This document shows, one piece after another, positions 1,675 to 59,130 of a stretch of 64,000 bases of DNA. Each line of letters starts with the position of its first letter. Position 1 is the stretch's first letter. Both the position numbers and the translations under genes were made by a program. The stretch comes from Escherichia coli. Its GTDB lineage: Bacteria > Pseudomonadota > Gammaproteobacteria > Enterobacterales > Enterobacteriaceae. The DNA lies in the NCBI RefSeq assembly GCF_016026235.1, contig NZ_CP065613.1. One strand, 5' to 3'. The notes under the pieces are model-generated. The model worked only from the letters and a program-made list of their open reading frames with translations, was not told the DNA's origin and ran no database searches.

Positions 1675-3100
1675 TAATGCCAGTCAGTTAAGCAACTGAC
1701 TGGCTCTTTTTCGGGGCTGTGGGGTATTTCCAGGGCCTCTCCTTTACCACTCTCGGGAAGGCCCTTCCCCTTCTCGTCGGTAATTTCACAAGTTGTCCCA
1801 TACTTGCAAGATCGCGCATCAGCTCCGGTATACGTCCCGGTGAAGCGCCCTGCAATGTCATCAGCATTCTCATCACCATTCCGCATGATTCTGAGAAACT
1901 CAGTTGATTCGGCCAGTAACCTTTCAGATGTTCCGCCATTTTAATCATCTGATATCTCACCAGATTATAAGCCAGTAAGACACCCCACAGCTCTTGCTCC
2001 ACAAGCTCCGGCTTTTTACTTCTCAGCGTCAGCCTGCTCAGTTGCATCGTCTGTTTTATCTCCCTGTATCCCAGTTCGATTTCCCAGCGATGACTGTACA
2101 GATCCGCCATTTCTCCTCCGGGGAAGCGCATGGCGTCCGTCATCGACGTCAGCAGATGGCAGACTTTTCCTTTGCGCGTCACGGTCAGCAGGCGGGCTGT
2201 CACTTCATTTCCCAGTCCCGGCCACTTTTTTCGTGCCTGCGGGCTGGTTTTCAGCTTCACCAGATGATCGCCTTTACCCAGTTTTCTGAGCTCTTCATAT
2301 TGCGCTCCCTTTCTGAGAGGTATCATCCAGTGGCGGTGTTCTCCCGCCAGGCTCCAGGCATTTAACAGTCCCAGTGAGTAATAACCTTTATCCATTAACG
2401 TCAGAGTGTTATCGCCGGTTTGTTCTATAAGTTGCTCAGCAAGCTCATTTTCGCTGTTCTTCATCGTGCCGAAGGCTGCAGCCGTCAGCAGATGGCTGGT
2501 CAGTTCCATCTGGCAGACCATTTTGACCTGCGGGTAGAGCGCCGGGTTCCCGGCATGTGTCTGGCGGGGGAAGGCTGCATCGTTCTCTGGTGTATCCGGT
2601 GTGCGCCAGAACACACCATCGATGGCCAGCAGGGTCAGGCCGCACCAGTGCGGATGCGGCGTGGCGTTATGCCAGAGCTGCGCTGTTTTCGTGAACACGC
2701 GGCGGACAGCCTCACTTCCCAGGCGCTGGCGGGCCTGAATAACGGCACTGGGGGCAACGAAGGGGCGATTGCCCGGCAGCATGATGTCCAGGCGATTCAC
2801 AATCTGGTGAAGAGGTTCTTTACGCTCAAGCGCCATGCCAACAATACACCAGACCATCATTTCGAGGGGAAGACGGCGCTTGCGTAGCGTTACAGTACCT
2901 GATTCGGCAAGGCAACGAGAGATGAGTTCGGGGTCGAGGTAATCCCCCAGAGAAGTCAGTGGGTTACGCAGAGAATCGTAACGGGATACCAGATCAAGAG
3001 CCTGTCCAATGTGCATAAAAAAATCCGGAAACAAGTGAGCGTTTCCGGATTCTTACACAGCCACTGGATCGGTCAACTGATCCTTAACTGATCGGCATTA
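1675..3100 (-). mobile_element. IS4: IS4-type insertion sequence, copy 1 (1426 bp, 18-bp imperfect terminal inverted repeats)
   Basis: Ends TAATGCCAGTCAGTTAAG (1675-1692) and reverse complement of 3083-3100 TAATGCCGATCAGTTAAG match 16/18; single long transposase ORF; length 1426 bp equals canonical IS4 as I recall it; flanked by 13-bp direct repeat. Confidence 0.85.
1688..3016 (-). CDS. insG: IS4 transposase (442 aa from ATG at 3016; ORF track extends to an upstream TTG at 3034)
   Basis: Protein begins [20 protein letters not shown]... as I recall for IS4 InsG; contains the IS4-family YREK-type C-terminal region ([16 protein letters not shown]). Confidence 0.85.
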
Positions 3101-9578: not shown

Positions 9579-11327
9579 ATGCATAACGACAAAGATCTCT
9601 CTACGTGGCAGACATTCCGCCGACTGTGGCCAACCATTGCGCCTTTCAAAGCGGGTCTGATCGTGGCGGGCGTAGCGTTAATCCTCAACGCAGCCAGCGA
9701 TACCTTCATGTTATCGCTCCTTAAGCCACTTCTTGATGATGGCTTTGGTAAAACAGATCGCTCCGTGCTGGTGTGGATGCCGCTGGTGGTGATCGGGCTG
9801 ATGATTTTGCGTGGTATCACCAGCTATGTCTCCAGCTACTGTATCTCCTGGGTATCAGGAAAGGTGGTAATGACCATGCGTCGTCGCCTGTTTGGTCACA
9901 TGATGGGAATGCCGGTTTCATTCTTTGACAAACAGTCAACGGGTACGCTGTTGTCACGTATCACCTACGATTCCGAACAGGTTGCTTCTTCCTCTTCCGG
10001 CGCACTGATTACTGTTGTGCGTGAAGGTGCGTCGATCATCGGCCTGTTCATCATGATGTTCTATTACAGTTGGCAATTGTCGATCATTTTGATTGTGCTG
10101 GCACCGATTGTTTCGATTGCGATTCGCGTTGTATCGAAGCGTTTTCGCAACATCAGTAAAAACATGCAGAACACCATGGGGCAGGTGACCACCAGCGCAG
10201 AACAAATGCTGAAGGGCCACAAAGAAGTATTGATTTTCGGTGGTCAGGAAGTGGAAACGAAACGCTTCGATAAAGTCAGTAACCGAATGCGTCTTCAGGG
10301 GATGAAAATGGTTTCAGCCTCTTCCATCTCTGATCCGATCATTCAGCTGATCGCCTCTTTGGCGCTGGCGTTTGTTCTGTATGCGGCGAGCTTCCCAAGT
10401 GTCATGGATAGCCTGACTGCCGGTACGATTACCGTTGTTTTCTCTTCGATGATTGCACTGATGCGTCCGCTTAAATCGCTGACCAACGTTAACGCCCAGT
10501 TCCAGCGCGGTATGGCGGCTTGTCAGACGCTGTTTACCATTCTGGACAGTGAGCAGGAGAAAGACGAAGGTAAGCGCGTGATCGAGCGTGCGACTGGCGA
10601 CGTGGAATTCCGCAATGTCACCTTTACTTATCCGGGACGTGACGTACCCGCCTTGCGTAACATCAACCTGAAAATTCCGGCAGGGAAAACGGTCGCTCTG
10701 GTTGGACGCTCTGGTTCAGGTAAATCAACCATCGCCAGCCTGATCACGCGTTTTTACGATATTGATGAAGGCGAAATCCTGATGGATGGTCACGATCTGC
10801 GCGAGTATACCCTGGCGTCGTTGCGTAACCAGGTTGCTCTGGTGTCGCAGAATGTCCATCTGTTTAACGATACGGTTGCTAACAACATTGCTTACGCACG
10901 GACTGAACAGTACAGCCGTGAGCAAATTGAAGAAGCGGCGCGTATGGCCTACGCCATGGACTTCATCAATAAGATGGATAACGGTCTCGATACAGTGATT
11001 GGTGAAAACGGCGTGCTGCTCTCTGGCGGTCAGCGTCAGCGTATTGCTATCGCTCGAGCCTTGTTGCGTGATAGCCCGATTCTGATTCTGGACGAAGCTA
11101 CCTCGGCGTTGGATACCGAATCCGAACGTGCGATTCAGGCGGCACTGGATGAGTTGCAGAAAAACCGTACCTCTCTGGTGATTGCCCACCGCTTGTCTAC
11201 CATTGAAAAGGCAGACGAAATCGTGGTCGTTGAGGATGGTGTCATTGTGGAACGCGGTACGCATAACGATTTGCTTGAGCACCGCGGCGTTTACGCGCAA
11301 CTTCACAAAATGCAGTTTGGCCAATGA
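9579..11327 (+). CDS. msbA: lipid A/LPS flippase ABC transporter (ATP-binding/permease)
   Basis: 582-aa ORF; Walker [13 protein letters not shown] signature LSGGQRQR; start [13 protein letters not shown]. Confidence 0.95.
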
Positions 11328-13630: not shown

Positions 13631-14556
<926 letters not shown>

Positions 14557-15603: not shown

Positions 15604-16359
15604 CGGACCTTTCAGCCACTGCCAGATGCGGCCAAGCGTTTCATAGCCAACACGATCGCTATGCATCAGCCAGACCGGAGAAGGGATTGCCCGTTCCCAC
15701 GGATTAAGCGGCGAGTCGATGGCCAACTGATTCGCCGGGGCTGGCAGCGGATTTAACCCTTCCTGCTGAAAAAAGATCATCGCCCGCGGCAAATGAGACG
15801 CGGATGTCACCAGCAGGAAAGGGGCGTCACCAATCTCCTGTTTCACTGCCGCAGCTTCTTCTTCGGTATCTTTTGGCAAATCCAGAGTGATAATTTGCTC
15901 ACGCGGCACGCCCAGCGATTGCGCAACTCTGGCACCTACTTCCGCTGTACTCACCGTATTGGTTTTTGCTACGCCTCCCGTGAAGATCAGTTTTGATCCC
16001 GGATTTTCGCGCCATAAGCGAATACCTTCATTCAGGCGTGGCAGACTGTTATTGATTAAATTAGAGCTCGGTGCCCACTGCGGGTTCCAGGTATAACCGC
16101 CTCCGAGCACCACGATATAGTCCACTTTTTGTGAATTATTCCATGTCGGATAGGTGCTTTCGATGGGACGCAACAGGCGGTCGGCTACCGGTTGCAAACT
16201 CAATAACAAGAGTGCCAGCCACCCAATGCTAATAAAAATCTTCCCGGTTTTTTGAAAACGGCTAAACCACAGCAGTGCCAGGCCAGCGCCAATAATTAAC
16301 AACATCAGCGGAAGTGGCAGCAACATATTGCCAATCACTTTTTTCAGTGTAAAAAGCAT
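15580..16359 (-). CDS. elyC: envelope biogenesis factor, DUF218 family
   Basis: 259-aa ORF with N-terminal transmembrane segments; 3' end overlaps ycbJ 3' end by 24 nt (convergent). Confidence 0.85.
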   Translation of the reverse strand: MLFTLKKVIGNMLLPLPLMLLIIGAGLALLWFSRFQKTGKIFISIGWLALLLLSLQPVADRLLRPIESTYPTWNNSQKVDYIVVLGGGYTWNPQWAPSSNLINNSLPRLNEGIRLWRENPGSKLIFTGGVAKTNTVSTAEVGARVAQSLGVPREQIITLDLPKDTEEEAAAVKQEIGDAPFLLVTSASHLPRAMIFFQQEGLNPLPAPANQLAIDSPLNPWERAIPSPVWLMHSDRVGYETLGRIWQWLKGPSGEPRQE

Positions 16360-16494
16360 CCTTTCTGGTTCCTTTTTTAACCATATAGCAAGGGATCGCC
16401 AGCGATATTACACCAGACGGGTTCATTCTCGCCGTGGCTGTGACAAAATAGCGTCTTTATCAGAAAACGTCTTAGCCAACCGGTGGAGAAAGCA

Positions 16495-17280
16495 ATGCAG
16501 GATCGCAATTTTGATGATATTGCGGAAAAGTTTTCCCGTAACATTTACGGCACCACCAAAGGGCAGCTTCGACAGGCTATTCTGTGGCAGGATCTCGATC
16601 ACGTGCTGGCGGAAATGGGCCCGCAAAAACTGCGTGTGCTGGATGCTGGCGGTGGAGAAGGGCAGACCGCAATCAAAATGGCCGAGCGTGGGCATCAGGT
16701 CATTTTATGCGATCTTTCTGCGCAGATGATCGACCGCGCAAAACAGGCGGCAGAAGCAAAAGGTGTGAGCGACAACATGCAATTTATACATTGCGCCGCT
16801 CAGGATGTTGCTTCGCATTTGGAAACGCCCGTTGATCTGATATTGTTCCATGCGGTGCTCGAGTGGGTGGCCGATCCCCGCAGCGTATTACAGACCCTGT
16901 GGTCAGTGTTGCGTCCAGGCGGTGTGTTGTCGTTAATGTTCTACAATGCGCACGGCTTGCTGATGCATAACATGGTCGCCGGGAATTTTGATTACGTGCA
17001 GGCGGGAATGCCGAAAAAGAAAAAACGGACGCTTTCGCCAGATTATCCACGCGACCCGGCGCAGGTTTATCTGTGGCTGGAAGAAGCTGGTTGGCAAATT
17101 ATGGGTAAGACAGGCGTTCGCGTGTTTCATGATTATCTGCGCGAGAAGCACCAGCAGCGCGACTGCTATGAAGCATTACTTGAATTAGAAACGCGTTATT
17201 GCCGTCAGGAACCGTATATTACCCTGGGGCGTTATATTCATGTCACCGCGCGCAAACCGCAGAGCAAGGATAAAGTATGA
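16495..17280 (+). CDS. cmoM: SAM-dependent tRNA methyltransferase (formerly smtA)
   Basis: ORF track starts at a GTG (16483); ATG at 16495 is preceded by GGAG; SAM-binding motif LDAGGGEG. Confidence 0.85.
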
Positions 17281-18599
17281 GTGAATTTTCCCAGACAGTC
17301 CCCGAACTGGTTGCCTGGGCCAGAAAAAATGACTTCTCCATCTCGCTGCCGGTAGACCGACTCTCTTTTCTGCTGGCGGTTGCCACGCTGAACGGCGAGC
17401 GTCTGGATGGTGAAATGAGTGAAGGCGAGCTGGTGGATGCATTCCGCCATGTGAGTGATGCGTTTGAGCAAACCAGCGAAACCATCGGCGTGCGCGCCAA
17501 TAACGCGATCAACGACATGGTGCGTCAACGTCTGCTGAACCGCTTTACCAGCGAGCAGGCGGAAGGGAACGCAATTTACCGTCTGACGCCGCTCGGCATC
17601 GGCATTACTGACTACTACATCCGTCAGCGCGAGTTTTCTACGCTGCGTCTTTCTATGCAGTTGTCGATTGTGGCGGGTGAGCTCAAACGCGCAGCAGATG
17701 CCGCCGAAGAGGGCGGTGATGAATTTCACTGGCACCGTAATGTCTATGCGCCACTGAAATATTCGGTAGCAGAAATTTTCGACAGTATCGACCTGACGCA
17801 ACGTCTGATGGACGAACAGCAGCAGCAGGTGAAGGACGATATCGCCCAGTTGCTGAACAAAGACTGGCGGGCGGCGATTTCCAGCTGTGAATTGTTGCTT
17901 TCGGAAACTTCCGGAACGCTGCGTGAATTGCAGGATACGCTGGAAGCGGCAGGCGACAAATTGCAGGCTAATCTGTTGCGCATTCAGGATGCGACGATGA
18001 CCCATGACGATCTGCATTTCGTCGATCGTCTGGTGTTCGATCTGCAGAGCAAACTCGATCGTATTATCAGTTGGGGCCAGCAATCCATCGACTTGTGGAT
18101 TGGCTACGACCGCCACGTACACAAATTTATTCGTACCGCGATCGATATGGATAAAAACCGCGTCTTTGCTCAGCGGTTACGTCAGTCGGTACAAACCTAT
18201 TTTGATGAGCCGTGGGCGCTAACTTATGCCAATGCCGATCGTCTGCTGGATATGCGTGACGAAGAGATGGCACTGCGCGATGAAGAAGTGACTGGGGAAC
18301 TTCCTGAGGATCTGGAATACGAAGAGTTTAACGAGATCCGCGAACAGCTGGCGGCGATCATCGAAGAACAACTTGCCGTGTACAAAACCAGACAAGTGCC
18401 GCTGGATCTTGGTCTGGTGGTACGCGAATATCTGTCACAGTATCCGCGTGCACGTCACTTTGACGTTGCGCGCATTGTTATTGATCAGGCGGTACGTCTT
18501 GGCGTAGCGCAAGCAGATTTCACCGGACTGCCAGCGAAATGGCAGCCGATTAATGATTACGGAGCCAAGGTACAGGCGCATGTCATCGACAAATATTGA
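17277..18599 (+). CDS. mukF: chromosome partition protein MukF (kleisin)
   Basis: 440-aa [47 protein letters not shown]. Confidence 0.95.
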
Positions 18600-19284
18600 A
18601 CAAGTGATGCCGGTTAAGCTGGCGCAGGCGCTGGCGAATCCGTTATTTCCGGCGCTGGACAGCGCCTTACGTTCAGGCCGCCATATTGGCCTCGACGAAC
18701 TGGATAATCATGCATTCCTGATGGATTTTCAGGAATATCTGGAAGAGTTTTACGCGCGTTATAACGTTGAGCTTATTCGCGCACCGGAAGGGTTCTTCTA
18801 TTTACGCCCACGTTCCACCACTCTTATCCCGCGTTCCGTCTTGTCGGAACTGGATATGATGGTCGGGAAAATCCTCTGTTATCTCTATCTCAGCCCGGAA
18901 CGGCTGGCGAATGAGGGGATTTTCACCCAGCAGGAACTGTACGACGAACTGCTCACCCTGGCCGATGAAGCAAAACTGCTGAAACTGGTGAACAACCGTT
19001 CAACCGGTTCAGACGTTGACCGTCAGAAGTTGCAGGAGAAAGTACGTTCTTCGCTCAACCGTCTGCGTCGTTTAGGCATGGTGTGGTTTATGGGCCACGA
19101 CAGCAGCAAGTTTCGCATTACCGAATCGGTGTTCCGCTTCGGAGCCGATGTGCGTGCTGGCGACGATCCCCGTGAAGCACAGCGTCGCCTGATTCGTGAT
19201 GGCGAAGCAATGCCGATTGAAAATCATCTGCAACTCAACGATGAAACCGAAGAGAATCAGCCAGATAGCGGAGAGGAAGAATAA
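18580..19284 (+). CDS. mukE: chromosome partition protein MukE
   Basis: ORF 18553-19284; likely start [16 protein letters not shown]; overlaps mukF 3' end. Confidence 0.9.
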
Positions 19285-22200
19285 TGATTGAACGCGGTAA
19301 ATTTCGCTCACTGACGCTGATTAACTGGAACGGCTTTTTTGCCCGAACTTTTGACCTTGACGAGCTGGTCACGACGCTTTCTGGCGGTAACGGGGCGGGT
19401 AAATCCACCACCATGGCGGCGTTCGTTACGGCGCTGATCCCCGACCTGACCCTGCTGCATTTCCGTAACACTACGGAAGCCGGGGCCACCAGCGGTTCGC
19501 GCGATAAAGGTCTGCACGGTAAGCTGAAAGCGGGTGTCTGTTATTCGATGCTCGACACCATTAACTCGCGCCACCAGCGCGTGGTGGTCGGTGTGCGTCT
19601 GCAACAGGTTGCCGGACGCGATCGTAAAGTGGATATCAAACCATTTGCCATTCAGGGACTGCCGATGTCGGTGCAGCCGACACAGCTGGTGACCGAAACC
19701 CTGAACGAACGCCAGGCGCGCGTGCTGCCGCTTAACGAGCTGAAAGACAAGCTCGAGGCGATGGAAGGCGTGCAGTTTAAACAGTTCAACTCCATTACCG
19801 ATTACCACTCGCTGATGTTCGATCTGGGCATCATCGCGCGTCGTCTGCGCTCCGCATCTGACCGTAGCAAATTCTATCGTCTGATCGAAGCTTCGCTGTA
19901 TGGCGGGATCTCCAGTGCCATTACCCGTTCTCTGCGCGACTACCTGTTGCCGGAAAACAGCGGCGTGCGTAAAGCGTTCCAGGACATGGAAGCGGCGCTG
20001 CGTGAAAACCGCATGACGCTGGAAGCGATTCGTGTCACCCAGTCGGACCGTGACCTGTTTAAGCATCTGATCAGCGAAGCTACCAACTACGTGGCGGCGG
20101 ACTACATGCGTCACGCCAACGAGCGCCGTGTCCATCTCGACAAAGCCCTGGAGTTTCGTCGCGAGCTACATACTTCGCGTCAGCAACTGGCGGCTGAGCA
20201 GTACAAACACGTCGATATGGCGCGTGAGCTGGCAGAGCACAACGGTGCCGAAGGCGATCTGGAAGCGGATTATCAGTCGGCCAGCGATCACCTGAACCTG
20301 GTGCAAACCGCACTGCGTCAGCAGGAGAAGATCGAACGCTACGAAGCGGATCTCGATGAGCTGCAGATCCGTCTGGAAGAGCAAAACGAAGTGGTGGCAG
20401 AAGCCATCGAACGCCAGGAAGAGAACGAGGTTCGTGCGGAAGCTGCCGAACTGGAAGTGGACGAGCTGAAAAGCCAGCTTGCTGACTACCAGCAGGCGCT
20501 GGACGTCCAGCAAACGCGCGCGATCCAGTATAACCAGGCGATTGCTGCGCTTAATCGCGCCAAAGAATTGTGTCATCTGCCGGACTTAACCGCCGACAGC
20601 GCCGCCGAATGGCTGGAAACCTTCCAGGCGAAAGAGCTGGAAGCGACTGAAAAAATGCTCACTCTTGAGCAGAAAATGAGCATGGCGCAAACCGCGCACA
20701 GCCAGTTTGAGCAGGCTTATCAGCTGGTGGTGGCAATCAACGGCCCGCTGGCGCGTAACGAGGCGTGGGATGTCGCTCGCGAACTATTGCGCGAAGGGGT
20801 CGATCAGCGTCACCTGGCAGAGCAGGTTCAGCCGTTGCGGATGCGCTTAAGCGAACTGGAACAGCGTCTGCGCGAGCAGCAAGAAGCTGAGCGTCTGCTG
20901 GCAGATTTCTGCAAACGTCAGGGCAAGAATTTTGATATTGATGAACTGGAAGCTCTGCATCAGGAGCTGGAAGCACGCATTGCCTCTCTTTCCGATAGCG
21001 TATCTAACGCCCGTGAAGAGCGGATGGCACTGCGGCAGGAACAGGAACAGCTGCAGTCTCGCATTCAGAGTTTGATGCAGCGTGCGCCGGTTTGGCTGGC
21101 AGCGCAAAACAGTCTCAACCAGTTGAGCGAACAGTGCGGCGAAGAGTTCACCTCCAGCCAGGACGTCACCGAATTCCTGCAACAGCTGCTGGAGCGTGAG
21201 CGCGAAGCCATTGTTGAACGCGATGAAGTGGGCGCGCGCAAAAACGCTGTCGATGAAGAGATCGAACGTTTAAGCCAGCCTGGCGGCTCTGAAGACCAGC
21301 GTCTGAATGCGCTGGCGGAGCGTTTTGGCGGCGTGCTGCTGTCAGAAATTTATGATGACGTTAGCCTGGAAGATGCGCCGTACTTCTCAGCGCTGTATGG
21401 CCCGTCACGCCACGCCATCGTGGTGCCAGATCTGTCACAGGTAACTGAACACCTGGAGGGCTTGACCGATTGCCCGGAAGATCTCTATTTGATCGAAGGG
21501 GATCCGCAGTCATTCGATGACAGCGTGTTCAGCGTTGATGAGCTGGAAAAAGCGGTAGTGGTGAAAATCGCCGATCGTCAGTGGCGTTATTCACGTTTCC
21601 CGGAAGTGCCGCTGTTTGGTCGTGCTGCGCGTGAAAGCCGTATTGAAAGCCTCCATGCCGAGCGTGAAGTGCTTTCCGAACGCTTCGCCACGCTCTCCTT
21701 TGACGTACAGAAAACCCAGCGTCTGCATCAGGCGTTCAGCCGCTTTATCGGTAGTCATCTGGCGGTGGCGTTTGAGTCTGACCCGGAAGCAGAAATCCGT
21801 CAACTGAACAGCCGTCGCGTCGAACTGGAGCGGGCGCTGAGTAATCATGAAAATGATAACCAGCAGCAGCGTATTCAATTTGAGCAGGCGAAAGAGGGCG
21901 TTACGGCGCTGAACCGCATTCTGCCGCGTCTCAACCTGTTGGCTGATGACAGCCTGGCGGATCGCGTCGATGAAATCCGCGAACGTCTGGATGAAGCCCA
22001 GGAAGCCGCGCGTTTTGTTCAGCAGTTTGGCAATCAACTGGCGAAACTGGAACCGATTGTTTCAGTGTTGCAGAGCGACCCGGAACAGTTCGAACAGTTA
22101 AAAGAAGATTACGCGTACTCTCAGCAGATGCAGCGCGATGCCCGTCAGCAGGCGTTTGCCCTGACGGAAGTGGTGCAGCGTCGTGCGCACTTTAGCTATT

Positions 22201-23744
22201 CTGACTCGGCAGAAATGCTTAGCGGTAACAGCGATCTCAACGAAAAACTGCGTGAACGTCTGGAACAGGCGGAAGCGGAGCGTACCCGCGCTCGTGAAGC
22301 GTTGCGCGGTCACGCAGCGCAGTTGAGTCAGTACAACCAGGTGCTGGCTTCGCTGAAAAGTTCGTATGACACCAAAAGAGAGCTACTTAACGATCTGCAA
22401 CGTGAATTGCAGGATATCGGCGTGCGTGCTGATAGCGGGGCAGAAGAGCGGGCACGTATTCGCCGTGACGAGTTGCACGCACAACTGAGCAATAACCGTT
22501 CCCGCCGCAATCAACTGGAAAAAGCGCTTACATTCTGCGAAGCGGAGATGGACAACCTGACCCGCAAACTGCGCAAGCTGGAGCGGGATTACTTTGAGAT
22601 GCGCGAGCAGGTAGTGACCGCCAAAGCGGGCTGGTGTGCGGTGATGCGCATGGTGAAAGATAACGGCGTTGAGCGCCGCTTACACCGTCGTGAGCTGGCT
22701 TATCTCTCCGCTGATGATTTGCGTTCCATGTCGGATAAGGCGTTAGGTGCGCTGCGTCTGGCGGTGGCGGATAACGAACATCTGCGCGACGTGCTGCGCA
22801 TGTCGGAAGATCCGAAACGTCCGGAGCGTAAAATTCAGTTCTTCGTGGCGGTTTATCAGCATCTGCGTGAACGTATTCGTCAGGATATTATTCGTACCGA
22901 TGATCCGGTGGAAGCTATCGAACAGATGGAGATCGAACTTAGCCGTCTGACCGAAGAATTAACCTCCCGTGAACAGAAACTGGCGATCAGTTCCCGCAGC
23001 GTGGCGAACATCATTCGCAAAACCATTCAGCGCGAGCAGAACCGTATCCGTATGCTCAACCAGGGGTTGCAGAACGTATCGTTTGGCCAGGTGAACAGCG
23101 TACGTCTGAACGTGAACGTACGTGAAACGCACGCCATGCTGCTGAATGTGCTCTCTGAACAGCACGAGCAGCATCAGGATCTGTTTAACAGCAACCGCCT
23201 GACCTTCTCAGAAGCGCTGGCGAAACTGTATCAACGTCTTAACCCGCAGATTGATATGGGGCAGCGCACGCCGCAGACCATTGGCGAAGAACTGCTGGAT
23301 TACCGCAACTATCTGGAAATGGAAGTTGAGGTTAACCGTGGTTCCGATGGCTGGTTGCGCGCAGAGTCTGGTGCATTGTCGACCGGTGAGGCGATTGGTA
23401 CCGGTATGTCGATTCTGGTGATGGTGGTACAAAGCTGGGAAGATGAATCTCGCCGCCTGCGCGGTAAAGATATCTCTCCTTGCCGCCTGCTGTTCCTCGA
23501 TGAAGCCGCGCGACTGGATGCTCGTTCTATCGCCACGCTGTTTGAATTGTGTGAACGTTTGCAAATGCAGCTCATCATCGCAGCGCCGGAAAATATCAGT
23601 CCGGAAAAAGGCACCACCTATAAACTGGTACGTAAAGTCTTCCAGAATACCGAACATGTTCACGTCGTCGGCCTGCGAGGATTTGCGCCGCAACTCCCTG
23701 AAACGCTTCCAGGAAGTGACGAAGCGCCTTCCCAGGCGAGTTAA
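19284..23744 (+). CDS. mukB: chromosome partition protein MukB (SMC-like condensin)
   Basis: 1486-aa ORF, Walker [10 protein letters not shown], long coiled-coil region; start overlaps mukE stop (TAATG). Confidence 0.96.
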
Positions 23745-23750
23745 AATGAA

Positions 23751-23780
23751 GGCGGCAGCAATGCCGCCTTTTCTTTTTCC
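23751..23780 (+). terminator. rho-independent terminator of mukB
   Basis: ggcggcagcaatgccgcc hairpin followed by ttttcttttt. Confidence 0.75.
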
Positions 23781-23809
23781 GAAAACTCCGTTTCTGCACT
23801 AAAAAAGTG

Positions 23810-23822
23810 GCACATTACGGCG
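23810..23822. repeat. 13-bp target-site duplication, left copy (GCACATTACGGCG)
   Basis: Identical 13-mer at 23810-23822 and 25249-25261 abutting IS ends. Confidence 0.85.
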
Positions 23823-25248
23823 TAATGCCAGTCAGTTAAGCAACTGACTGGCTCTTTTTCGGGGCTGTGGGGTATTTCCAGGGCCTCTCCTTTACCACTC
23901 TCGGGAAGGCCCTTCCCCTTCTCGTCGGTAATTTCACAAGTTGTCCCATACTTGCAAGATCGCGCATCAGCTCCGGTATACGTCCCGGTGAAGCGCCCTG
24001 CAATGTCATCAGCATTCTCATCACCATTCCGCATGATTCTGAGAAACTCAGTTGATTCGGCCAGTAACCTTTCAGATGTTCCGCCATTTTAATCATCTGA
24101 TATCTCACCAGATTATAAGCCAGTAAGACACCCCACAGCTCTTGCTCCACAAGCTCCGGCTTTTTACTTCTCAGCGTCAGCCTGCTCAGTTGCATCGTCT
24201 GTTTTATCTCCCTGTATCCCAGTTCGATTTCCCAGCGATGACTGTACAGATCCGCCATTTCTCCTCCGGGGAAGCGCATGGCGTCCGTCATCGACGTCAG
24301 CAGATGGCAGACTTTTCCTTTGCGCGTCACGGTCAGCAGGCGGGCTGTCACTTCATTTCCCAGTCCCGGCCACTTTTTTCGTGCCTGCGGGCTGGTTTTC
24401 AGCTTCACCAGATGATCGCCTTTACCCAGTTTTCTGAGCTCTTCATATTGCGCTCCCTTTCTGAGAGGTATCATCCAGTGGCGGTGTTCTCCCGCCAGGC
24501 TCCAGGCATTTAACAGTCCCAGTGAGTAATAACCTTTATCCATTAACGTCAGAGTGTTATCGCCGGTTTGTTCTATAAGTTGCTCAGCAAGCTCATTTTC
24601 GCTGTTCTTCATCGTGCCGAAGGCTGCAGCCGTCAGCAGATGGCTGGTCAGTTCCATCTGGCAGACCATTTTGACCTGCGGGTAGAGCGCCGGGTTCCCG
24701 GCATGTGTCTGGCGGGGGAAGGCTGCATCGTTCTCTGGTGTATCCGGTGTGCGCCAGAACACACCATCGATGGCCAGCAGGGTCAGGCCGCACCAGTGCG
24801 GATGCGGCGTGGCGTTATGCCAGAGCTGCGCTGTTTTCGTGAACACGCGGCGGACAGCCTCACTTCCCAGGCGCTGGCGGGCCTGAATAACGGCACTGGG
24901 GGCAACGAAGGGGCGATTGCCCGGCAGCATGATGTCCAGGCGATTCACAATCTGGTGAAGAGGTTCTTTACGCTCAAGCGCCATGCCAACAATACACCAG
25001 ACCATCATTTCGAGGGGAAGACGGCGCTTGCGTAGCGTTACAGTACCTGATTCGGCAAGGCAACGAGAGATGAGTTCGGGGTCGAGGTAATCCCCCAGAG
25101 AAGTCAGTGGGTTACGCAGAGAATCGTAACGGGATACCAGATCAAGAGCCTGTCCAATGTGCATAAAAAAATCCGGAAACAAGTGAGCGTTTCCGGATTC
25201 TTACACAGCCACTGGATCGGTCAACTGATCCTTAACTGATCGGCATTA
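23823..25248 (-). mobile_element. IS4: IS4-type insertion sequence, copy 2 (1426 bp)
   Basis: Offset of 22148 bp from copy 1; same terminal repeats (23823-23840, 25231-25248); all ORF-track translations inside it are identical to copy 1. Confidence 0.85.
23836..25164 (-). CDS. insG: IS4 transposase (442 aa)
   Basis: Identical protein to the copy at 1688-3016. Confidence 0.85.
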
Positions 25249-48888: not shown

Positions 48889-48998
48889 TACAGGTTCGGA
48901 AAACGTTTGCGTTTTTTTTGCCGCAGGTCAATTCCCTTTTGGTCCGAACTCGCACATAATACGCCCCCGGTTTGCACACCGGGAATCCAGGAGAGTTC

Positions 48999-50009
48999 AT
49001 GTACTACCCCTTCGTTCGTAAAGCCCTTTTCCAGCTCGATCCAGAGCGCGCTCATGAGTTTACTTTTCAGCAATTACGCCGCATTACCGGAACACCGTTT
49101 GAAGCACTGGTGCGGCAGAAAGTGCCTGCGAAACCTGTTAACTGCATGGGCCTGACGTTTAAAAATCCGCTTGGTCTGGCAGCCGGTCTTGACAAAGACG
49201 GGGAGTGCATTGATGCGTTAGGCGCGATGGGATTTGGATCGATCGAGATCGGTACCGTCACGCCACGTCCACAGCCAGGTAATGACAAGCCGCGTCTCTT
49301 TCGTCTGGTAGATGCCGAAGGTTTGATCAACCGTATGGGCTTTAATAATCTTGGCGTTGATAACCTCGTAGAGAACGTAAAAAAAGCCCATTATGACGGC
49401 GTCCTGGGTATTAACATCGGCAAAAATAAAGATACGCCAGTAGAGCAGGGCAAAGATGACTATCTGATTTGTATGGAAAAAATCTATGCCTATGCGGGAT
49501 ATATCGCCATCAATATTTCATCGCCGAATACCCCAGGATTACGCACGCTGCAATATGGTGAAGCGCTGGATGATCTCTTAACCGCGATTAAAAATAAGCA
49601 AAATGATTTGCAAGCGATGCACCATAAATATGTGCCGATCGCAGTGAAGATCGCGCCGGATCTTTCTGAAGAAGAATTGATCCAGGTTGCCGATAGTTTA
49701 GTTCGCCATAATATTGATGGCGTTATTGCAACCAATACCACACTCGATCGTTCTCTGGTTCAGGGAATGAAAAATTGCGATCAAACCGGTGGCTTAAGTG
49801 GTCGTCCGCTTCAGTTAAAAAGCACCGAAATTATTCGCCGCTTGTCACTGGAATTAAACGGTCGCTTACCGATCATCGGTGTTGGCGGCATCGACTCGGT
49901 TATCGCTGCGCGTGAAAAGATTGCTGCGGGTGCCTCACTGGTGCAAATTTATTCTGGTTTTATTTTTAAAGGTCCGCCGCTGATTAAAGAAATCGTTACC
50001 CATATCTAA
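48999..50009 (+). CDS. pyrD: dihydroorotate dehydrogenase (quinone)
   Basis: ORF 48972-50009; start [28 protein letters not shown]. Confidence 0.95.
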
Positions 50010-57489: not shown

Positions 57490-59130
57490 ATGGAATCTAA
57501 TAATGGGGAAGCCAAAATCCAGAAAGTGAAGAACTGGTCTCCCGTGTGGATATTTCCTATCGTCACGGCGCTCATTGGGGCCTGGGTTCTTTTTTATCAT
57601 TACAGCCATCAGGGACCGGAAGTGACCCTGATCACCGCGAATGCGGAAGGAATTGAAGGTGGCAAAACCACCATTAAAAGCCGTAGCGTTGACGTCGGCG
57701 TGGTTGAAAGCGCCACACTCGCTGATGATTTGACACACGTTGAAATCAAAGCGCGGCTGAATTCCGGTATGGAAAAATTGCTGCATAAAGATACCGTCTT
57801 TTGGGTGGTGAAACCGCAGATTGGTCGAGAAGGGATTAGCGGTCTGGGAACCCTGCTGTCTGGGGTTTATATCGAACTGCAGCCAGGCGCGAAAGGCAGC
57901 AAAATGGATAAATACGATTTGCTGGACTCGCCACCGTTGGCCCCGCCTGATGCGAAAGGTATCCGTGTGATTCTCGATAGCAAAAAAGCCGGGCAGCTCT
58001 CGCCAGGAGATCCGGTGCTGTTCCGTGGCTATCGGGTAGGTTCGGTTGAAACCAGCACCTTCGATACGCAAAAACGCAATATCAGTTATCAACTGTTCAT
58101 CAATGCACCTTATGACCGACTGGTGACCAGCAATGTTCGCTTCTGGAAAGATAGTGGCATTGCGGTTGATCTGACGTCAGCGGGAATGCGTGTGGAGATG
58201 GGCTCATTGACAACGCTGCTGAGTGGCGGTGTCAGCTTTGATGTGCCGGAAGGTCTGGATTTAGGGCAGCCAGTGGCACCGAAAACAGCTTTCGTTTTGT
58301 ATGATGATCAGAAGAGCATTCAGGATTCGTTGTACACCGATCACATTGATTATCTGATGTTCTTTAAAGATTCGGTACGCGGTCTGCAACCGGGAGCTCC
58401 GGTAGAATTCCGGGGTATTCGCCTGGGTACCGTAAGCAAAGTGCCATTCTTTGCGCCGAATATGCGTCAGACATTTAACGATGATTACCGTATTCCGGTG
58501 CTGATTCGTATCGAGCCAGAGCGGCTGAAAATGCAGCTTGGCGAAAATGCGGATGTTGTTGAGCACCTTGGCGAATTGTTGAAACGTGGTTTACGCGGAT
58601 CGCTGAAAACCGGAAACCTGGTCACTGGCGCACTGTATGTTGATCTCGATTTCTATCCAAATACGCCTGCAATAACCGGTATTCGTGAATTTAATGGTTA
58701 TCAGATTATCCCGACCGTTAGCGGCGGCCTGGCGCAAATCCAGCAACGACTGATGGAAGCGTTGGATAAGATCAACAAACTGCCATTGAATCCGATGATT
58801 GAACAGGCAACCAGTACGCTTTCTGAAAGTCAGCGCACAATGAAAAACCTGCAAACGACGCTGGATAGCATGAACAAGATCCTCTCCAGCCAGTCGATGC
58901 AGCAGTTGCCGACGGATATGCAGTCAACGTTGCGTGAATTGAATCGCAGCATGCAGGGCTTCCAGCCTGGCTCCGCAGCCTACAACAAGATGGTGGCGGA
59001 TATGCAGCGCCTTGATCAGGTGTTGCGAGAACTGCAACCGGTGCTGAAAACGCTCAATGAGAAGAGTAACGCGCTGGTATTTGAAGCGAAGGACAAAAAA
59101 GATCCAGAGCCGAAGAGGGCGAAACAATGA
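57490..59130 (+). CDS. pqiB: MCE-domain intermembrane transport protein
   Basis: ORF 57430-59130; likely start MESNNGEAKIQKVKNWSPVWIFPIV. Confidence 0.9.
   Translation: MESNNGEAKIQKVKNWSPVWIFPIVTALIGAWVLFYHYSHQGPEVTLITANAEGIEGGKTTIKSRSVDVGVVESATLADDLTHVEIKARLNSGMEKLLHKDTVFWVVKPQIGREGISGLGTLLSGVYIELQPGAKGSKMDKYDLLDSPPLAPPDAKGIRVILDSKKAGQLSPGDPVLFRGYRVGSVETSTFDTQKRNISYQLFINAPYDRLVTSNVRFWKDSGIAVDLTSAGMRVEMGSLTTLLSGGVSFDVPEGLDLGQPVAPKTAFVLYDDQKSIQDSLYTDHIDYLMFFKDSVRGLQPGAPVEFRGIRLGTVSKVPFFAPNMRQTFNDDYRIPVLIRIEPERLKMQLGENADVVEHLGELLKRGLRGSLKTGNLVTGALYVDLDFYPNTPAITGIREFNGYQIIPTVSGGLAQIQQRLMEALDKINKLPLNPMIEQATSTLSESQRTMKNLQTTLDSMNKILSSQSMQQLPTDMQSTLRELNRSMQGFQPGSAAYNKMVADMQRLDQVLRELQPVLKTLNEKSNALVFEAKDKKDPEPKRAKQ

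Follow-up and report, generated by a model that had tools for sequence, protein, structure and literature searches.

In the stretch of E. coli DNA analysed (64,000 nucleotides; hereafter, the window), the genes cmoM, mukF, mukE and mukB follow one another with no spacers between cistrons, and they are expressed from a single mRNA, on which MukE would probably be made from ATG 18580 by means of a ribosome-binding site (RBS) embedded in mukF, translational coupling and independent initiation acting together. Initiation of MukE at this ATG is the most likely reading of the sequence.

Organization of the operon and its junctions

The gene order, with cmoM (smtA) first and then mukF-mukE-mukB, is that of the mukFEB (MukBEF condensin) operon of Enterobacterales. 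All operon features described here lie on the + strand; annotation was carried over, with an offset of 601, from a RefSeq record that is 100% identical. In that annotation cmoM, the operon's first gene, spans 16495–17280. mukF (17277–18599, with its TGA stop at 18597–18599; ORF, Pfam and annotation) encodes the 440-residue kleisin subunit, in which the Pfam models KicB, MukF_M and MukF_C (winged-helix, middle and C-terminal domains) were all matched (E = 6e-58 to 4e-85). mukE (18580–19284, with TAA at 19282–19284; annotation, Pfam and ORF) encodes the KITE subunit, whose 234-residue sequence is identical to chain C of PDB 3EUH and matches the Pfam MukE model (E = 2.7e-127) from residue 10 onwards. 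The SMC subunit, of 1486 residues, is encoded by mukB (19284–23744), which was named from its ORF and from annotation (the 100%-identical record and K-12); PF04310 is present at the homologous loci.

The smtA-mukFEB genes are transcribed together as one long RNA (PMC4332155). Within the operon, just one terminator-like site is convincing, and it is 3′ of mukB, at the operon end: an intrinsic terminator-like hairpin with a T-tract (23748–23781) that begins 4 nt past the mukB stop, its stem of 10 bp including six GC pairs and being followed by TCTTTTTCCG. Weaker terminator-like matches within mukB were at chance level (10 versus 8.8 expected). No promoter-like (sigma-70) site was found in 16300–24000, versus 4.1 expected, and a comparison with Rfam gave no match within the operon.

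The junctions given in the preliminary description of this DNA were borne out by the sequence. With ATG 18580 as the start, mukF and mukE share 20 nt (18580–18599, mukF stop codon included), the mukE ATG (18580–18582) being formed by cAT-Gtc, the codons for His435 and Val436 of MukF; at TAATG (19282–19286), the mukB ATG (19284–19286) shares one nucleotide with the mukE stop. An ATGA at 17277–17280, absent from that description, joins the cmoM stop to the mukF start with a 4-nt overlap. RefSeq places the junctions at the same coordinates in both the 100%-identical record and K-12 MG1655, and the sequences of all three junctions are those of K-12, with no differences. The overlaps are real and already known from the standard E. 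coli K-12 annotation, and the layout is that of an ordinary operon; as such, given this annotation and a junction type that is common, they matter little.

Conservation of the junctions

In the 75 Enterobacteriaceae species compared, the mukF/mukE distance was always −20 nt, a value also found in Erwinia, Rahnella and Ca. Symbiodolus. The mukE/mukB distance was −1 (64 species), −4 (9) or −8 (2), and a spacer was never seen; that of cmoM/mukF was −8 (27), −4 (10) or +3 (35). The three junctions of the operon thus all fell within −20 to +3 nt in these species. The best 80 loci of the contig scan all belonged to Enterobacteriaceae, deeper lineages being represented by eleven single look-ups, mostly of metagenomic contigs. 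Across these 11 lineages of the wider Muk/Mks family, E and B overlapped or abutted in 10 and F and E overlapped in 7, with F/E distances from −32 to +85. MksFEB/Wadjet and distant MukFEB operons share with E. coli the F-E-B order and recurrent tight junctions (F/E −32, −8, −4 and +1; E/B −11, −8, −7, −4, −1 and 0). In contrast to E. coli, several distant lineages have true spacers of +34 to +138 with an SD of their own. The −20 architecture with the ATG in the MukF His-Val codons was confined, among the lineages compared, to Enterobacterales. The taxonomic spread of gap-type versus overlap-type junctions is sketched from the eleven lineages only.

Choice of the mukE start codon

The 20-nt overlap hinges on ATG 18580, and the mukE frame also contains ATG 18553 (243 aa), GTG 18604 and ATG 18607. 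The last of these (18607–18609) is Met10, the start of the older 225-residue MukE, and would replace the overlap by a gap of 7 nt past the mukF stop. ATG 18553 (18553–18555) was rejected as the start of its 243-residue ORF: it is missing in Enterobacter, Leclercia, Cedecea and others, and has no SD (−1.8 kcal/mol).

A block of near-zero synonymous variation extends from the 3′-end of mukF into codons 1–10 of mukE (18555–18609). At mukF codons 427–436 (18555–18584) the mean third-position entropy was 0.041, versus a gene mean of 0.89 (73 species), the lowest of the 409 mukF windows (rank 1). Entropy was 0.00 at mukE codons 2 and 4–9, and climbed to ∼0.8–1.0 from codon 11. The MukF His codon was CAT in all 77 unique sequences and never CAC, and the SD-like block at 18561–18570 was invariant at synonymous sites. 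This pattern points to a mukE translation-initiation region embedded in the mukF 3′-end. An internal promoter was rejected as an explanation of the block, there being no sigma-70-like match in 16300–24000. The last 15 mukF codons are under nucleotide-level constraint, and should be preserved when recoding, when tagging MukF at its C-terminus or when refactoring the operon.

The SD of mukF (AAGGA) lies 5 nt upstream of its ATG (−5.2 kcal/mol), and that of mukB (GGAGAGGAAG, 19270–19279; −6.6 kcal/mol) falls within the codons for the acidic tail of MukE (SGEEE), a GGAG/GGGAGGAAGA motif 5′ of the mukB ATG being kept across species. Upstream of ATG 18580 there is an SD-like GGAGCCAAGG (18561–18570), in which GGAG stands at 14–15 nt and would form an anti-SD duplex of −5.8 kcal/mol, but with a reported spacer of 14 nt, which is too long; AAGG at 9 nt, spotted by eye, is weak. 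mukB and mukF thus have usable SDs of their own, and that of mukE at 18580 is weaker or poorly spaced. ATG 18607 has no SD (−0.2 kcal/mol). Masking of the mukE or mukB RBS by RNA structure was also considered and rejected, the folds predicted in silico being no better than shuffles (MFE z of −0.33 for 18530–18650 and +0.19 for 19230–19340), which leaves room for independent initiation at these junctions. The conserved block is invariant, making covariation analysis impossible.

That ATG 18607 serves as the main or an additional start of MukE, through SD-less reinitiation across a 7-nt gap and with a product of 225 residues or two isoforms, seems unlikely, even though a number of observations fit it. 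This ATG is present in 75/75 species at a fixed 7 nt from the mukF stop, and +7 falls within the range competent for reinitiation (PMC10666635). Synonymous variation is nil at mukE codons 8–9, beyond the end of mukF, and the constraint stops exactly at Met10, where the Pfam model also begins. The 225-residue protein was the earlier annotation and crystallises (it was used in PDB 7V8P and 3RPU), and a table of the MazF regulon places a mukE ACA 7 nt before the start, which fits 18607. A remark on Syn61 (PMC13287592) also bears on the matter: forbidden codons remain in mukE as a result of changed coordinates, and Syn61 derivatives are reportedly viable despite these undecodable codons in an essential gene. 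Among the TCA/TCG codons, codons 2 and 3 (TCA TCG) alone fall outside the old 225-residue annotation, which, together with this viability, suggests that initiation at 18580 is not an absolute requirement; by the same token, initiation at Met10 could supply enough MukE in a viable tRNA-deleted Syn61 strain. This argument is, however, indirect, since near-cognate decoding could rescue codons 2–3. Against ATG 18607 stands its lack of an SD, the removal of which lowered reinitiation by 60–100% in four of five E. coli pairs (PMC6728339). The peak of synonymous constraint is 25 nt upstream of 18580, away from 18607, and the peptide MSSTNIEQV is kept throughout Enterobacterales. Outside the clade, moreover, Met10 is lost (Pro in Ca. 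Symbiodolus; Ile, Leu or Ser elsewhere), while an upstream ATG or N-terminal extension is kept. Where relatives lack Met10, their ORF nonetheless begins at the homologous His-codon ATG (−20 in Ca. Symbiodolus and −32 in a relative 44% identical), and in gap-type relatives MukE keeps ∼9–10 residues ahead of the KL(A/I) motif. We therefore favour ATG 18580 as the ancestral start under selection, with ATG 18607 as a possible backup. The choice matters in practice, MukE having been used at both lengths, 234 and 225 residues, in structural studies as well as in designs for genome recoding.

It is also conceivable, if rather doubtful, that both starts work within one extremely conserved 55-nt block, 18580 being SD-driven and 18607, which has no SD, being used only by ribosomes that terminate mukF. 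Were this so, roughly one coupled and one independent MukE would be made per MukF, hard-wiring a 2:1 MukE:MukF ratio, and the viability of recoded E. coli without tRNAs for mukE codons 2–3 would be explained.

Translational coupling and alternative explanations

The preliminary description had taken the overlaps as consistent with translational coupling of stoichiometric complex subunits. The products are indeed subunits of one complex, MukBEF, but 'stoichiometric' fails if understood as 1:1:1, since the composition is MukB2E4F2 for the purified complex, or B4E4F2 in vivo (PMC8669397). MukE synthesis must then run about twice as fast as that of MukF, a ratio beyond the reach of one-for-one coupling. 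Translational coupling of mukFEB is plausible and would fit the conserved layout. The searchable literature on muk, covered for translational coupling, ribosome profiling and start codons, yielded no mukFEB coupling experiment and nothing direct other than the Syn61 remark.

Among genes for heteromeric complexes, short overlaps are enriched ∼4.5-fold, and experiments on other E. coli pairs have shown that they couple translation (PMC10666635, PMC6728339). Reinitiation is competent and efficient at −8 to +10 nt (PMC10666635), a range that includes cmoM/mukF (−4) and mukE/mukB (−1); mukF/mukE, at −20 with start 18580, is outside it, and would come inside, at +7, only with ATG 18607. Distances of ∼20 nt nearly abolished coupling in tested pairs, these being positive spacers and not overlaps (PMC10666635). 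Compared with the −4/−1 coupled pairs of Huber et al. 2019 (PMC6728339) and 2023 (PMC10666635), the muk operon has the two commonest types (ATGA at cmoM/mukF and TAATG at mukE/mukB) and shares with them intragenic SDs, co-transcription and products belonging to one complex; it differs in that mukF/mukE, at −20, is outside the class, and in having no predicted structure that blocks de novo initiation. A likeness to the mukF/mukE junction is offered by coat/lysis of phage fr, where, as summarised in PMC10666635 from Adhin and van Duin 1990, reinitiation across a 34-nt overlap occurs by back-positioning of the ribosome. As in phage fr, the mukE start precedes the mukF stop, and the ribosome would move back 14 nt to bring its P-site to the ATG. 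According to that summary, however, the start nearest the stop wins in phage fr, whereas the muk candidates are about equidistant from the P-site (18580 at −14 and 18607 at +13), and lysis is a regulatory trickle while MukE is needed at ∼2 times the MukF level.

In the mechanism that we consider probable, mukF starts at its ATGA and mukB at its TAATG, each with an SD just 5′, and the mukE RBS (∼18555–18584, with SD-like GGAG..AAGG) would be contained in the final 15 codons of mukF. Ribosomes ending the upstream cistron would restart on the next by termination-reinitiation where the junction is −4 or −1; at the −20 junction the SD would recapture the ribosome, whose P-site on terminating mukF would be 14 nt downstream of ATG 18580. 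Coupling would keep the output of the three subunits correlated, and independent SD-driven initiation, or reinitiation at less than 100%, would set the unequal F:E:B ratio of 1:2:1–2. Given its non-equimolar product, the operon would be a reasonable test case for the setting of subunit ratios by coupled plus independent initiation.

The overlaps may instead have arisen as by-products while the operon became compact and its stops and starts drifted, each gene being initiated from its own SD and RBS strengths alone setting the ratio; we regard this as possible but less probable than not. The SDs of mukF, mukE (18580) and mukB, at −5.2 to −6.6 kcal/mol, beat ∼80–90% of random positions, neither junction is predicted to fold into a structure that occludes the RBS, and the unequal stoichiometry of MukBEF would require independent tuning anyway. 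The junctions do drift among species (cmoM/mukF −8, −4, +3; E/B −1, −4, −8), some relatives have true spacers (F/E +34, +56 and +85; E/B +138), and overlaps occur in the window regardless of function, msbA/lpxK and ycaR/kdsB not being known complex partners. bioBF, an overlap pair tested in E. coli, was uncoupled (PMC6728339). Yet most of the native E. coli overlap pairs tested were coupled, and the enrichment of short overlaps for complex subunits is 4.5-fold (PMC10666635, PMC6728339); E/B, moreover, had no spacer in 75 species and overlapped or abutted in 10 of the 11 wider lineages.

A programmed +1 frameshift fusing MukF to MukE could also be imagined, since mukE is read in frame +1 relative to mukF, and the UGA that closes the overlap has an SD-like block ahead of it. 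It is extremely improbable, and was effectively rejected: there is no slippery site (at UAU-UGA-A, the tRNA-Tyr on UAU cannot re-pair on AUU), the SD-like motif is 27–36 nt upstream of the mukF stop, versus ∼3 nt in the frameshift of prfB, and in structures MukF and MukE are separate chains.

Overlaps elsewhere in the window

ATGA overlaps noted earlier at msbA/lpxK (11324–11327), ycaR/kdsB (13810–13813) and pqiB/pqiC (59127–59130) are likewise present. No kind of junction is commoner in prokaryotic operons than that seen in the muk operon. An annotated region of 41 kb matches part of the window, and 8 of its 24 pairs of same-strand neighbours overlap; genome-wide, 707 of the 2,987 unidirectional pairs of E. 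coli lie at −8 to +6 nt (PMC10666635). Set against random sequence the overlaps are non-random, yet they are usual for operons. In the ssuEADCB operon of the same window, three of the four junctions overlap (−8, −4 and −4), as in the muk operon, so several overlaps in a row are nothing unusual for operons here; ssuEADCB, however, encodes an ABC transporter plus enzymes, and the muk operon a single machine of fixed stoichiometry.

Overlapping junctions of the mukFEB operon

Reading the sequence placed mukF at 17277..18599 (+ strand), mukE at 18580..19284 (+; a 234-aa ORF opened by the in-frame ATG at 18580) and mukB at 19284..23744 (+). The preliminary description had put the start of mukE inside the 3′-end of mukF and the ATG of mukB over the mukE stop codon; given the ATG at 18580 as start, mukF and mukE do overlap by 20 nt (18580-18599), and the mukE/mukB junction reads TAATG at 19282-19286. 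The ATGA overlaps it had listed at msbA/lpxK (11324-11327), ycaR/kdsB (13810-13813) and pqiB/pqiC (59127-59130) were all found in the sequence, together with one absent from its list, at cmoM/mukF (17277-17280). The RefSeq annotations of the identical E. coli record and of K-12 MG1655 give the same gene coordinates, mukE of K-12 being NP_415443.2 (975622..976326). Over the operon 105 of 7,250 positions differ from K-12 (1.45%), while the MukE protein is identical and no base differs in the three junction sequences. The mukFEB overlaps are those of an already known operon, as annotated.

Overlaps are frequent in this genome: an annotated 41-kb region corresponds to part of the window, and of its 24 pairs of adjacent same-strand genes 8 overlap, three of these pairs belonging to the ssu operon. 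For unidirectional E. coli genes the commonest spacing is -4, followed by -1 and -8, and spacings of -8 to +6 occur in 707 of 2,987 such pairs (PMC10666635). The muk overlaps are therefore non-random when set against random sequence, yet ordinary by the genome's own habits; the 20-nt overlap alone belongs to a rarer type.

The start codon of mukE

The 20-nt overlap is real only if MukE starts at 18580. Besides this ATG, the mukE frame contains ATG 18553, GTG 18604 and ATG 18607, and a start at the last of these (Met10, yielding 225 aa) leaves a 7-nt gap, the outcome that the preliminary description had itself named as refuting. MukE is 234 aa long in PDB entries 3EUH, 9GMB and 9GMD, and 225 aa long in 7V8P and the tagged 3RPU; the Pfam MukE model starts at residue 10 of the 234-aa protein. 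In 75 Enterobacteriaceae species the mukF stop, the ATG at -27 (18580) and the Met10 ATG (18607) occupy fixed positions. ATG 18553 was dismissed as the MukE start, its codon being missing in many genera in this comparison.

More distant relatives were sampled through 50%-identity cluster representatives and their contigs. The -20 overlap is kept in Erwinia, Rahnella and the insect symbiont Ca. Symbiodolus clandestinus (MukE 61% identical); since residue 10 of the symbiont protein is Pro, its translation cannot begin at Met10. In a relative with 44% identity the ATG again lies within the homologous MukF His codon (…LHAFD… versus …AHVID…), with an overlap of -32. Relatives with spacers between the genes (+34, +56 and +85) still encode ∼9-10 residues ahead of the KL(A/I) motif, and have no Met at the position equivalent to Met10. 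Synonymous-site variation was analysed in 73 mukF ORFs of equal length, as third-position entropy in 10-codon windows. The lowest of the 409 windows was that of codons 427-436 (nt 18555-18584; mean entropy 0.041, against 0.89 for the gene as a whole), and the MukF His codon that provides the AT of the mukE ATG was CAT in 77 of 77 unique sequences, and never CAC. Such constraint is the footprint expected of a mukE initiation region serving 18580 and embedded in mukF. Taken together, the comparative evidence favours 18580 as the selected, ancestral start of MukE.

Codons 2-13 of mukF (17280-17315), at its own 5′-end beside the cmoM overlap, come second in the gene for synonymous constraint (entropy ∼0.20 versus 0.89), a pattern typical of translation-initiation regions.

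A second MukE start might lie at 18607. Across the 75 species Met10 never changes, nor does its spacing of 7 nt from the mukF stop; mukE codons 8-9, which lie beyond mukF, show no synonymous change, and the constraint stops precisely at Met10 (entropy 0.00 in mukE codons 2-9, ∼0.8-1.0 from codon 11). At +7 from the mukF stop, this ATG is inside the efficient reinitiation range (PMC10666635). It has, however, no SD (-0.2 kcal/mol), and four of the five E. coli pairs tested lost 60-100% of reinitiation once the SD was removed (PMC6728339). A further point comes from the recoded strain Syn61, which reportedly keeps forbidden codons in the essential mukE owing to re-annotated gene coordinates (2026 recoding paper, PMC13287592). 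Codons 2 and 3 of K-12 mukE are the only TCA/TCG codons outside the old 225-aa annotation, and we infer that these are the codons left behind; if so, the viability of a tRNA-deleted Syn61 derivative suggests that Met10 initiation or misreading can provide MukE. The P-site codon of a ribosome terminating mukF is 18594-18596; ATG 18580 is 14 nt behind this codon and ATG 18607 13 nt in front of it, which puts the two inside the ribosome's footprint or at its edge. With 18580 as the favoured start, 18607 stays a candidate second one, dual starts being a testable possibility, and the 55-nt block 18555-18609, under strong constraint, is best regarded as the probable mukE initiation region.

Two ACA triplets (MazF cleavage sites) were noted, at 18572-18574, 8 nt before ATG 18580, and at 18600-18602, 7 nt before ATG 18607. 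A MazF-regulon table gives mukE with a distance of 7 (PMC5001579), so MazF cleavage could yield a near-leaderless mRNA for the 225-aa MukE.

Possible translational coupling

Several observations speak for coupling. The smtA-mukFEB genes form one transcript (PMC4332155; smtA is cmoM). A search for sigma-70 consensus-like promoters on both strands of 16300-24000 returned 0 matches versus 4.1 ± 1.8 in shuffles, a mild depletion over this 7.7-kb operon region. The one convincing terminator hairpin lies 4 nt past the mukB stop; weaker terminator-like matches within mukB (10 versus 8.8 expected) were no more numerous than by chance. Among the 75 species, mukE/mukB spacing was -1 (64 species), -4 (9) or -8 (2), and that of cmoM/mukF -8 (27), -4 (10) or +3 (35); the exact form of both junctions drifts, always inside the reinitiation-competent range. 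In 11 wider lineages, genes overlapped or abutted at mukE/mukB in 10 and at mukF/mukE in seven.

Short-overlap junctions are 4.5-fold enriched among genes for heteromeric complexes, and most native E. coli pairs with such junctions that were tested were coupled (PMC10666635, PMC6728339). Other points speak against coupling or limit it. No coupling measurements on muk genes were found in the searchable literature, and the mukF/mukE junction, at -20, is outside the class tested for reinitiation (PMC10666635). Each cistron has an SD of its own (mukF -5.2, mukE -5.8 and poorly spaced, mukB -6.6 kcal/mol), and neither junction region folded more stably than its shuffled controls (z -0.33 for mukF/mukE, +0.19 for mukE/mukB), so nothing visible there stands in the way of independent initiation. 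The complex is MukB2E4F2 as purified, or B4E4F2 in vivo (PMC8669397); MukE thus has to be produced about twice as fast as MukF, and one-for-one coupling cannot achieve this. Coupling would be a reasonable, if generic, reading of the mukFEB overlaps, least secure at mukF/mukE.

Strain background, variant homologues and insertion sequences

Region 16400-23800, whose matched features are annotated cmoM, mukF, mukE and mukB, matched E. coli FDAARGOS_943 at 100% identity; in 5,422 other complete E. coli genomes the identity was 95-99%. Identity of at least 99% was found in only three of 5,425 matching genomes, which, with the 1.45% difference from K-12, indicates that the window comes from an uncommon lineage.

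In the metagenomic MukE P0082 the N-terminal ∼60 residues are strongly divergent (MSLINSEFPLPLRLAEA...) and the remainder is near-identical to E. coli MukE, which suggests recombination or a chimeric assembly. Several homologues of 380-574 aa carry a long C-terminal extension beyond the MukE domain (metagenomic locus L085; representatives P0127-P0136), and in L085 each of the two junctions contains a spacer (+56, +138).

Two identical 1,426-bp IS4 copies are present (1675-3100 and 23823-25248), with transposase ORFs at 1688..3034 and 23836..25182 (both - strand; Pfam Nterm_IS4 and DDE_Tnp_1). The 13-bp target duplications that flank them are CGGCACATTGTCG for the copy between aroA and ycaL and GCACATTACGGCG for the copy downstream of mukB, 76 nt past the mukB stop and just beyond the operon terminator; GGCACATT is common to both targets. 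Both insertions are missing from K-12 and from the 100%-matching strain, FDAARGOS_943, which has IS2 and IS5 fragments beside aroA where the window has IS4. Among 5,426 E. coli genomes, 19 carry IS4 at the same mukB-ldtD site, which therefore looks like an IS4 hot spot. The only Rfam match at the gathering threshold in the 64 kb was the PyrD leader (48931-49004, +; 97.9 bits), upstream of pyrD.
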